Origin: Burkholderiales bacterium
GTDB taxonomy: Bacteria > Pseudomonadota > Gammaproteobacteria > Burkholderiales > SG8-39
Direction of reading: 5' to 3'
Assembly (NCBI GenBank): GCA_035631735.1
Contig: DASQIG010000406.1
Coordinates: 1-24,115 of the forward strand
DNA length: 24,115 nucleotides
The position numbers and the translations under genes were made by a program. The notes below the pieces were generated by a model. The model was not told the DNA's origin. It did not search any database and worked only from the letters and a program-made list of their open reading frames with translations. Below are positions 15,093 to 19,436 of the stretch, in pieces. How positions within the stretch are numbered: the first letter of the stretch is position 1; every line of letters begins with the position of its first letter.

Positions 15093-18809
<3,717 letters not shown>

Positions 18810-18818
18810 GTACGCTCC

Positions 18819-18857
18819 AACAAGAAAGGCCCGTTCAGCTTTGCGCGAAACGGGCCT
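18819..18857 (-). terminator. Intrinsic terminator in the metH leader (riboswitch expression platform)
   Basis: AGGCCCGTT-(13 nt)-AACGGGCCT followed by TTCTTGTT, ending about 9 nt before the metH GTG. Confidence 0.75.
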
Positions 18858-18922
18858 GTTCGACGCGTCTCTTTAGCGGCATTTGTAACGCGCCCGCAAG
18901 CTGAACATCAAATCGGCGCGGT
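18857..18922 (-). ncRNA. SAM-II (SAM_alpha-type) riboswitch aptamer
   Basis: AC-CGCGCC-GAUUU-GAUGUUCA-GCUUGC-G-GGCGCG-UUAC-AAAU-GCCGCUAAAG-AGACG. P1 CGCGCC/GGCGCG is a perfect helix, and the conserved GAUUU, GCUUGC, AAAU and GCUAAAG blocks are in SAM-II order. It lies upstream of a methionine biosynthesis gene. Confidence 0.85.
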
Positions 18923-18928
18923 AGTGGG

Positions 18929-18957
18929 AGTCTGCCCACAGGGCTTGGACGTGTCAA
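18929..18957 (-). promoter_or_regulatory. Putative sigma70 promoter for metH
   Basis: Perfect TTGACA (18957-18952) - 17 nt - CAGACT (18934-18929). The predicted +1 is the A at 18922, 2 nt before riboswitch P1. Confidence 0.65.
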
Positions 18958-18983: not shown

Positions 18984-19436
18984 ATGGCCGCTGGCGCGGA
19001 ATTTCACTCGATCGTCGGGCGGTTTGCGTGCCGGGTGCACTGGGGCGACTGCGATCCGGCCGGGATGATTTTCTACCCGACCTACTTCCGCTGGGTCGAT
19101 GCGGCGAGCTGGGCGCTGTTCGAGACTGCGGGTTACGGGCCGCAGTGGATGAAGCGCGAGCACATCGCCATGCCGCTCGTCTCGGCGCAGTGCGAATTTC
19201 TCGCGCCCGCGGTTCAGGGCGACCGCTGCGAAGTGCGCTCCCGCATCGGACGCTTCGGCGGCAAGTCGTTCACCGTCGAGCACGACATCGTGCGCAGCGA
19301 CGGAACGGCCCTTGCGAAGGCGCAGGAGACGCGGGTCTGGGGCCGCTACGTCGGCGGCCCGGGCACGCCCCTCAAGGGCGAGACGATTCCGGAAGAGGTC
19401 AAGGCGCGTTTCCGCGCGCCCTCGCCCACTCGCTGA
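18984..19436 (+). CDS. Hotdog-fold acyl-CoA thioesterase (4-hydroxybenzoyl-CoA thioesterase / YbgC-like)
   Basis: RVHWGDCDPAGMIFYPTYFRWVD (catalytic-Asp motif), PLVSAQCEFLAP, RIGRFGGKSF. Confidence 0.88.
   Translation: MAAGAEFHSIVGRFACRVHWGDCDPAGMIFYPTYFRWVDAASWALFETAGYGPQWMKREHIAMPLVSAQCEFLAPAVQGDRCEVRSRIGRFGGKSFTVEHDIVRSDGTALAKAQETRVWGRYVGGPGTPLKGETIPEEVKARFRAPSPTR

Follow-up and report, generated by a model that had tools for sequence, protein, structure and literature searches.

The metH leader and its elements

The window analysed here is the whole stretch of 24,115 nucleotides of contig DASQIG010000406.1, from a Burkholderiales MAG that is 71% complete. It carries metH, coding for a cobalamin-dependent methionine synthase in which the Pfam domains S-methyl_trans, Pterin_bind, B12-binding_2, B12-binding and Met_synt_B12 are recognized (E 1e-20 to 1e-123), and a divergent thioesterase gene. 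The leader of metH shares a 174-bp intergenic region with this second gene. The elements of the locus are listed below.

18984-19436, plus strand: 4HBT-family thioesterase gene, 150 aa, divergent from metH
18929-18957, minus strand: putative sigma-70 promoter read from the sequence, TTGACA (18957-18952), 17-nt spacer, CAGACT (18934-18929)
18853-18929, minus strand: SAM-II (SAM_alpha) aptamer, RF00521, 45.4 bits for a gathering score of 36, E 1.9e-7
18920-18915 and 18894-18889, minus strand: aptamer helix P1, CGCGCC with GGCGCG, read from the sequence
18914-18895, minus strand: 20-nt aptamer loop, beginning with GAUUUG and ending with CAGCUUGCG
18900-18895, minus strand: P2 5' strand CUUGCG, in the register of the published SAM-II fold
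18878-18871, minus strand: P2 3' strand CGCUAAAG, in the register of the published SAM-II fold
18862-18871, minus strand: linker GAGACGCGUC, directly 3' of the P2 3' strand, able to pair with the terminator 5' arm (18856-18847)
18819-18857, minus strand: predicted intrinsic terminator, hairpin (-20.5 kcal/mol) and U-tract
18857-18849, minus strand: terminator 5' arm AGGCCCGUU
18848-18836, minus strand: terminator loop, 13 nt
18835-18827, minus strand: terminator 3' arm AACGGGCCU
18827-18819, minus strand: terminator U-tract UUUCUUGUU
18807-18818, minus strand: Shine-Dalgarno GGAG (18818-18815) and GTG start codon of metH (18809-18807), read from the sequence
15093-18809, minus strand: metH, 1238 aa, five Pfam domains, the gene that the leader would regulate

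The aptamer matches RF00521 over its full length (model positions 1-79) and lies 44 nt upstream of metH, that is, in the 5' leader of a methionine-metabolism gene, as expected for SAM-II. Its covariance-model score, its H-type pseudoknot layout and this gene context assign it to the SAM-II class, and SAM binding is predicted. For P2 we assumed the register of the published SAM-II fold, alongside Corbino 2005. Without ligand, P2 is worth only -3.2 kcal/mol. In SAM-II, SAM protects P2 and L1, which are exposed in its absence (PMC10907184).

A transcript from the putative promoter would start at about 18922, directly before P1, and SAM-II promoters have been located a few nt 5' of P1 (Corbino 2005, PMC1273637). 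The promoter is absent from a promoter scan because its -10 hexamer matches at only 3 of 6 positions; relatives have CAGAAT at the position of this hexamer.

On the other side of the aptamer, a 14-nt linker leads from the P2 3' strand to the terminator. The GC-rich terminator stem has 9 to 10 bp, including 7 G-C pairs, with the U-tract immediately 3'; a simple terminator scan skipped this hairpin because it allows loops of 3-8 nt only. After the 3' arm come the tail UUCUUGUU, then GGAG, then the GTG start, and the Shine-Dalgarno and start codon of metH, both beyond the terminator, have no complementarity to the aptamer. An earlier note, made from the sequence alone, had read the terminator arms, the tail, the GGAG (18818-18815) and the start at 18809 in the same way.

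Related leaders were fetched after RF00521 searches of 71 genomes of the genus, 150 of the order, one further family and 150 of the phylum. A search for related loci with the MetH N-terminus gave mostly distant taxa, with SAM-II leaders in only a few. Two alignments were made. The first, A1, holds 45 leaders, i.e. the 42 metH leaders of the genus that have a terminator, and three others of like build (L011, L013 and L016); the second, A2, holds leaders from at least 8 families of the order. The leaders compared for covariation are related by descent.

In A1, P1 is 100% paired and its closing pair covaries. All 44 distinct leaders have the P2 pairs CUU/AAG and GC/GC, without variation, and GAUUUG (L1) and GCUAAAG (3' strand) form invariant columns. 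The terminator stem is paired in 98.5% of cells, with 4 covarying pairs in the genus and 5 across families. All 45 leaders have a terminator loop of 11-15 nt, with an invariant 3' half, AAGC[U/C]GA, and a variable 5' half. The U-tract UUUCUUGUU is weaker in the window than in the leaders of relatives. The possibility that the terminator loop might be a second SAM-binding P2 3' strand was rejected, since most relatives have CGCAAGC at this place, a sequence with neither the UA bulge nor the A-run seen in the conserved CGCUAAAG.

A conserved helix between aptamer and terminator

The central element of the leader is a long complementarity between the 3' end of the aptamer loop and the apex of the terminator. 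On the minus strand, GUUCAGCUUGCG (18906-18895) forms 12 Watson-Crick pairs with CGCAAAGCUGAAC (18845-18833), leaving A18842 bulged, and a U18907.G18832 wobble could add a 13th pair. The two strands of this candidate antiterminator are thus as follows.

18895-18907, minus strand: antiterminator 5' strand, the variable L1 tail (U)GUU followed by CAGCUUGCG, including the whole P2 5' strand
18832-18845, minus strand: antiterminator 3' strand CGCAAAGCUGAAC(G), made up of the loop's 3' half and the uppermost bases of the terminator 3' arm

The duplex has an energy of -16.3 kcal/mol, compared with -7.1 +/- 2.3 for shuffled loops, and none of 300 shuffles was as good. The 12-bp complementarity with one bulged A described by the earlier note is confirmed. 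When the whole 36-nt terminator region was shuffled, the values were -18.0 for the duplex and -8.5 kcal/mol for the shuffles, none of which reached the observed energy (0/200). In the energy comparison of the alternative states, the antiterminator duplex amounts to -17.8 kcal/mol. The partner does lie where it had been placed, in the loop and the top of the 3' arm, but the loop, then called unusually long, may not be fully open over its 13 nt, since RNAfold predicts additional closure, by a U.G pair, a 1x1 mismatch and two G-C pairs, down to a GCAAA pentaloop. The antiterminator 3' strand adjoins the lower part of the 3' arm without any linker, so that antiterminator and terminator stem are mutually exclusive. 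To form together, the two helices would have to make an H-type pseudoknot with a third loop of length zero across a 12-bp stem, which is presumably excluded on steric grounds.

The 42 metH leaders of the genus keep the helix, as do leaders from several further families of Burkholderiales. In A1, 96% of the cells of its 9-bp core are paired. At pair 20-107, A1 has U-A in 26 leaders, C-G in 13, U.G in 2 and G-C in 1, and the same 3'-arm base makes 26 U-A and 14 U.G pairs within the terminator stem. Where this base is G, the aptamer partner is C and the terminator partner is still U (the 14 wobbles), so that the pairing with the aptamer is the better-kept Watson-Crick pair. Across families (A2), pair 20-112 is U-A in 14 leaders, C-G in 10, A-U in 7 and G-C in 1, and pair 21-111 is U-A in 31, C-G in 5, A-U in 2 and U.G in 4. 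The covariation score of the helix in A2 is 0.139, compared with 0.059 for shuffles (0/500 as high) and at most 0.07 for all slid controls; sliding the partner by 1-3 columns lowers pairing in A2 to 31-41%. Aptamer function fixes much of the 5' strand, and only two or three pairs can covary. The earlier note had suggested covariation among leaders as a check on the helix, and pairs 20-112 and 21-111 do covary.

Examples of the variable end of the helix are GUUC/GAAC in the window, GCUC/GAGC, GGUC/GACC (L013) and GACC/GGUC (L173 and its family). They indicate that the L1 tail is a copy of the 5'-arm top of the terminator, the two competing for the same 3'-arm bases. In 12 leaders of A1, about a quarter of the genus, a central A of the helix faces a C, and this A.C mismatch interrupts the helix in those leaders. 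A sub-clade of the genus (L004, L005, L006, L008, L014, L117, L118, L120, L130 and L134) has C for U in the loop (AAGCCGAGC); its members have the mismatch in the middle of the antiterminator (A.C, or C.C in L014) and a compensated GCUC/GAGC end. Among the metZ-class leaders of the genus, the helix is not above chance (150-200 of 200 shuffles as good), and it is no better than shuffles in the sampled alphaproteobacterial SAM-II leaders with a terminator. Taken as a comparison of sequences, these data show that the helix of the metH leaders exists and is selected in evolution.

Folding of the growing chain was another check that the note had suggested. The minimum free energy (MFE) fold of the window leader contains the helix at lengths of 88-94 nt and flips to the terminator in chains of at least 96 nt; these values come from nested folds with P1 open, because the antiterminator formed with P1 folded is a pseudoknot that the energy model cannot score. 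The stage of 88-94 nt comes after the loop and the first bases of the 3' arm have emerged, and before the 3' arm is complete. An antiterminator intermediate appears in the growing-chain folding of 41 of the 45 leaders. In such modelled chain growth the helix is therefore shown to form first, i.e. it is the MFE structure before the terminator 3' arm is finished. At full length, the antiterminator state is at -35.4 and the terminator state at -39.5 kcal/mol; with the terminator state 4 kcal/mol more stable, the scheme depends on kinetics, and the direct-path barrier between the two states is about 25 kcal/mol. When the SAM complex was mimicked, by forcing P1 and blocking L1 and the 5' and 3' strands of P2, the leader folded to the terminator.

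The proposed switch and its alternatives

We think it likely that the leader works as a SAM-II riboswitch and represses metH through early termination of transcription. In this proposal, the switching element would be the P2 5' strand CAGCUUGCG together with the 3-4 variable L1 nucleotides just upstream (GUU). Without SAM, P2 would be weak and its 5' strand free. Once the terminator loop has emerged from the polymerase, the free strand would pair with the 3' half of this loop (CGCAAAGCUG, a decoy for the P2 3' strand), and the helix would extend into the first nucleotides of the 3' arm (AAC). With no linker to the rest of the 3' arm, the GC-rich lower stem would stay open, and the polymerase would read into metH. 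With SAM, P1, L1 and P2 would be locked and the strand buried in the P2/L1 triplex, hence unavailable; the terminator hairpin would fold and a transcript of about 100 nt would be released. Nucleation on the loop may let the aptamer strand, although distant, start pairing earlier than the adjacent 5' arm, which would explain why a long terminator loop is conserved. We infer the SAM dependence, the termination itself and the kinetic order in vivo.

The earlier note had proposed the same ON/OFF logic, with the P2 strand capturing the terminator loop without SAM and being withheld from it with SAM. Comparison of the leaders supports this logic well, through the conservation, covariation and folding of the helix, and read-through without SAM with termination in its presence fits a metH gene repressed by SAM. 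"Loop capture", as the note called it, describes a helix that is real, conserved and covarying, but the picture was incomplete, as the uppermost 3-4 nt of the 3' arm are drawn into the helix as well.

A more conventional antiterminator could be drawn with the linker GAGACGCGUC and the terminator 5' arm. SAM would then block antitermination by fixing the adjoining P2, and the 12-bp helix would be accessory or irrelevant. In the MFE structures at 84-94 nt the linker/5'-arm hairpin does form beside the long-range helix, its pairing (GAGACGCGUC with GGCCCGUUUC) is 88.6% in the genus, and in metZ-class leaders of the genus, as in several order-level leaders, the P2 3' strand is set against the terminator 5' arm or loop. 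However, its covariation score equals the shuffle mean (0.125 for 0.126), the helix contains two wobbles and one mismatch, and only one of its pairs overlaps P2, so that coupling to SAM would be weak. Neither the invariant 3' half of the loop nor the covariation between L1 tail and 3' arm is accounted for by this scheme, which we hold to be unlikely. An alternative partner of the linker is the P1 3' strand; this helix, H2 (GGCGCGU of P1 with ACGCGUC), is about 88% paired in the genus, again with covariation at the shuffle mean. H2 and the linker/5'-arm helix, both suggested by the energy model, are thus unsupported by covariation, and are possible accessories. The element 3' of the aptamer, GACGCGUC, that can form the 7 bp with the P1 3' strand (18862-18894, minus strand) is a near-palindrome.

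The terminator might also be constitutive, a partial attenuator or a source of sRNA, with the aptamer acting on translation or mRNA stability and the complementarity serving another purpose, for instance as a trap keeping the aptamer off in the full-length leader. Precedents exist for both aspects: at S. meliloti metA, a terminator after SAM-II seems independent of the aptamer and gives stable sRNAs (PMC9373788), and the linker of a SAM-II/SAM-V tandem keeps the aptamer silent at equilibrium (PMC11508383). What makes this reading quite improbable for the window is that the Shine-Dalgarno and start codon of metH, past the terminator, offer the aptamer no complementary sequence to act on, and that the helix overlaps the terminator 3' arm exactly and without linker, a geometry of mutual exclusion. 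Moreover, in the genus members devoid of the terminator (L113 and L157) the start codon comes right after the aptamer, which is what one expects if regulation acts through the terminator. As for a chance origin of the complementarity, or a by-product of GC-rich, CGCG-type composition, GC-rich leaders do yield many spurious helices, and the two CGCG-based helices that we tested were highly paired without covarying. Against this stand the shuffles, none of which equals the observed helix energy (0/300 and 0/200), the slid controls with their 30-40% pairing, the four types of Watson-Crick pair that occur across families, and the metZ class, which has the same composition and not the helix. A chance origin is strongly disfavoured, and we give it very little credence. 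We therefore retain the antiterminator formed by the P2 5' strand and the terminator apex as the preferred reading.

A broader generalization, on which we find the arguments evenly balanced, is that SAM-II of the Burkholderiales type has a distinct general platform, in which the terminator apex is a decoy of P2, the P2 strands swap partners in the ligand-free RNA, and the loop nucleates pairing with the P2 5' strand before the 3' arm is made. If true, it would provide SAM-II with its first defined mechanism of antitermination and explain why terminator loops of 11-15 nt are kept, and it might explain the "linker-mediated inactivation" of SAM-II in vitro.

Known systems and other SAM-II leaders

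Control of transcription by SAM-II, which the earlier note regarded as a candidate for an undescribed mechanism, had already been stated or predicted (PMC1273637, PMC2258182, PMC9481103, PMC9373788). Terminators after SAM-II aptamers were reported when the class was discovered, as the metA motif (Corbino 2005, PMC1273637), and transcription-level control was stated or predicted by Barrick & Breaker 2007 (PMC2258182). Tandem SAM-II units with terminators, SAM-II/SAM-V and SAM-II/SAM-II, have been catalogued (Sherlock 2022, PMC9481103). The S. meliloti metZ leader, for which termination is predicted, yields the sRNA RZ, and this mode of control was partly shown in Sinorhizobium in 2022 (Scheuer 2022, PMC9373788). 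All these systems (metA motif, S. meliloti metZ, first units of tandems) resemble the window in their aptamer class, in being OFF with SAM, and in the order aptamer, terminator, methionine gene. The accounts compared here specify no pairing for an antiterminator, and they describe the mechanism as not established by experiment.

In the literature that we compared, from which Poiata 2009, Gilbert 2008 and Haller 2011 fall outside, no description of the present pairing was found. What is apparently undescribed is therefore narrower than transcription-level control itself: it is the specific antiterminator wiring of the Burkholderiales SAM-II subtype, in which the P2 5' strand and the variable L1 tail serve as antiterminator and engage the terminator loop first. 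In the sampled alphaproteobacterial leaders, a repeat of the terminator 3' arm follows the P2 3' strand, which allows a three-element scheme to be drawn. In the window, by contrast, it would be the 5' pseudoknot strand that switches, pairing with the distal half of the terminator.

A similar comparison holds for the small pseudoknot aptamers of preQ1-I (Bacillus subtilis queC), fluoride and ZTP riboswitches, which, as proposed here, compete with a terminator by co-transcriptional strand exchange. In those riboswitches it is the 3' pseudoknot strand or tail that is shared and competes with the terminator 5' arm, whereas in the window the 5' pseudoknot strand would be shared, competing for the loop and the 3' arm.

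Pairing to a terminator loop, which had seemed new, has a precedent in guanidine-IV (mepA), where an aptamer loop likewise pairs with the terminal loop of the terminator and prevents termination (PMC10907184). That contact is induced by the ligand and makes an ON switch, whereas the one in the window would be the ligand-free default of an OFF switch. In addition, the window helix is longer-reaching, with 9-13 bp that run into the 3' arm, and its aptamer is unrelated to guanidine-IV. The strand that pairs with the loop is here the one that the ligand-bound fold sequesters, so the window is not of the guanidine-IV type and the likeness is functional only.

Two other described elements are closer. 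In Burkholderiales, a beta-proteobacterial "metXZ" element precedes metX or metZ, and consists of a pseudoknot of conserved regions with a variable terminator; its authors speculated that an antiterminator forms between GC-rich conserved regions and a terminator arm (Leyn 2014, PMC4239095). It was held distinct from SAM_alpha, was found before metX/metZ and not metH, and the pairing was left unspecified (PMC4239095). It is probably the same RNA subtype as the window riboswitch. In the Pelagibacter SAM-II/SAM-V tandem, SAM-II is kept from binding SAM by a hairpin in the downstream linker, and anti-linker oligonucleotides restore binding (PMC11508383). As proposed for the window, a linker that contains the terminator appears to compete with P2 of a SAM-II aptamer; lineage and sequence are other ones, and the authors, who could not explain the silencing, offer no pairing model (PMC11508383).

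SAM-II is structurally among the best-studied riboswitches, and termination is said to be its commonest mode in alpha- and beta-Proteobacteria, though this mode is still called unestablished; two recent experimental papers state that they have no explanation of how the downstream hairpin and the aptamer communicate. With an antiterminator helix that is defined and covaries, precise mutations can be designed for its testing. The wiring is unusual in that the 5' rather than the 3' pseudoknot strand would be shared, and the terminator attacked from its loop and 3' arm. It could be of use in modelling co-transcriptional strand exchange and in designing compact OFF switches.

SAM-II copies in the genus fall into three classes, metH, metZ-like with terminator, and metX. 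While 42 metH leaders have a terminator of the present build, two lack it (L113 in G065 and L157 in G001), and in these the metH start directly follows GCUAAAG, so that the expression platform has been exchanged within the genus. In the wiring of the metZ class, the P2 3' strand and the linker pair with the terminator 5' arm and the start of the loop (AAGCGUGCCG with CGGUCCGCUU, genus-wide). The source genome has one copy of this class, before a metZ-like gene (L002:1380-1512, contig C272, minus strand, 34.8 bits, below the cut-off), whose differently wired terminator pairs the P2 3' strand CUAAAGCG with CGCUUUAG at the junction of 5'-arm top and loop. A third copy precedes metX (L003:1500-1575, contig C21, minus strand, 29.9 bits). 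Most metX leaders of the genus have the start codon a few nt past the P2 3' strand; in L003, the AUG is 6 nt past it and there is no terminator, so that control is presumably translational. With its metH, metZ-like and metX copies, one genome would thus carry three expression platforms on one aptamer type.

RF00521 scores of SAM-II aptamers of the Burkholderiales type range from 27 to 52 bits, compared with 62-88 for most alphaproteobacterial matches (three are at 37-50). Many of these aptamers are below the cut-off of 36 bits, so that a good share will escape standard annotation; with scores near the Rfam cut-off, and two of the three copies of the source genome below it, the subtype is probably under-annotated. 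Finally, in three order-level leaders (L175, L195 and L199) both P2 strands find a complement in the terminator apex GGUUUAGCG-CAAGCUGACC, which, judging from these sequences, suggests a double strand swap between P2 and terminator.
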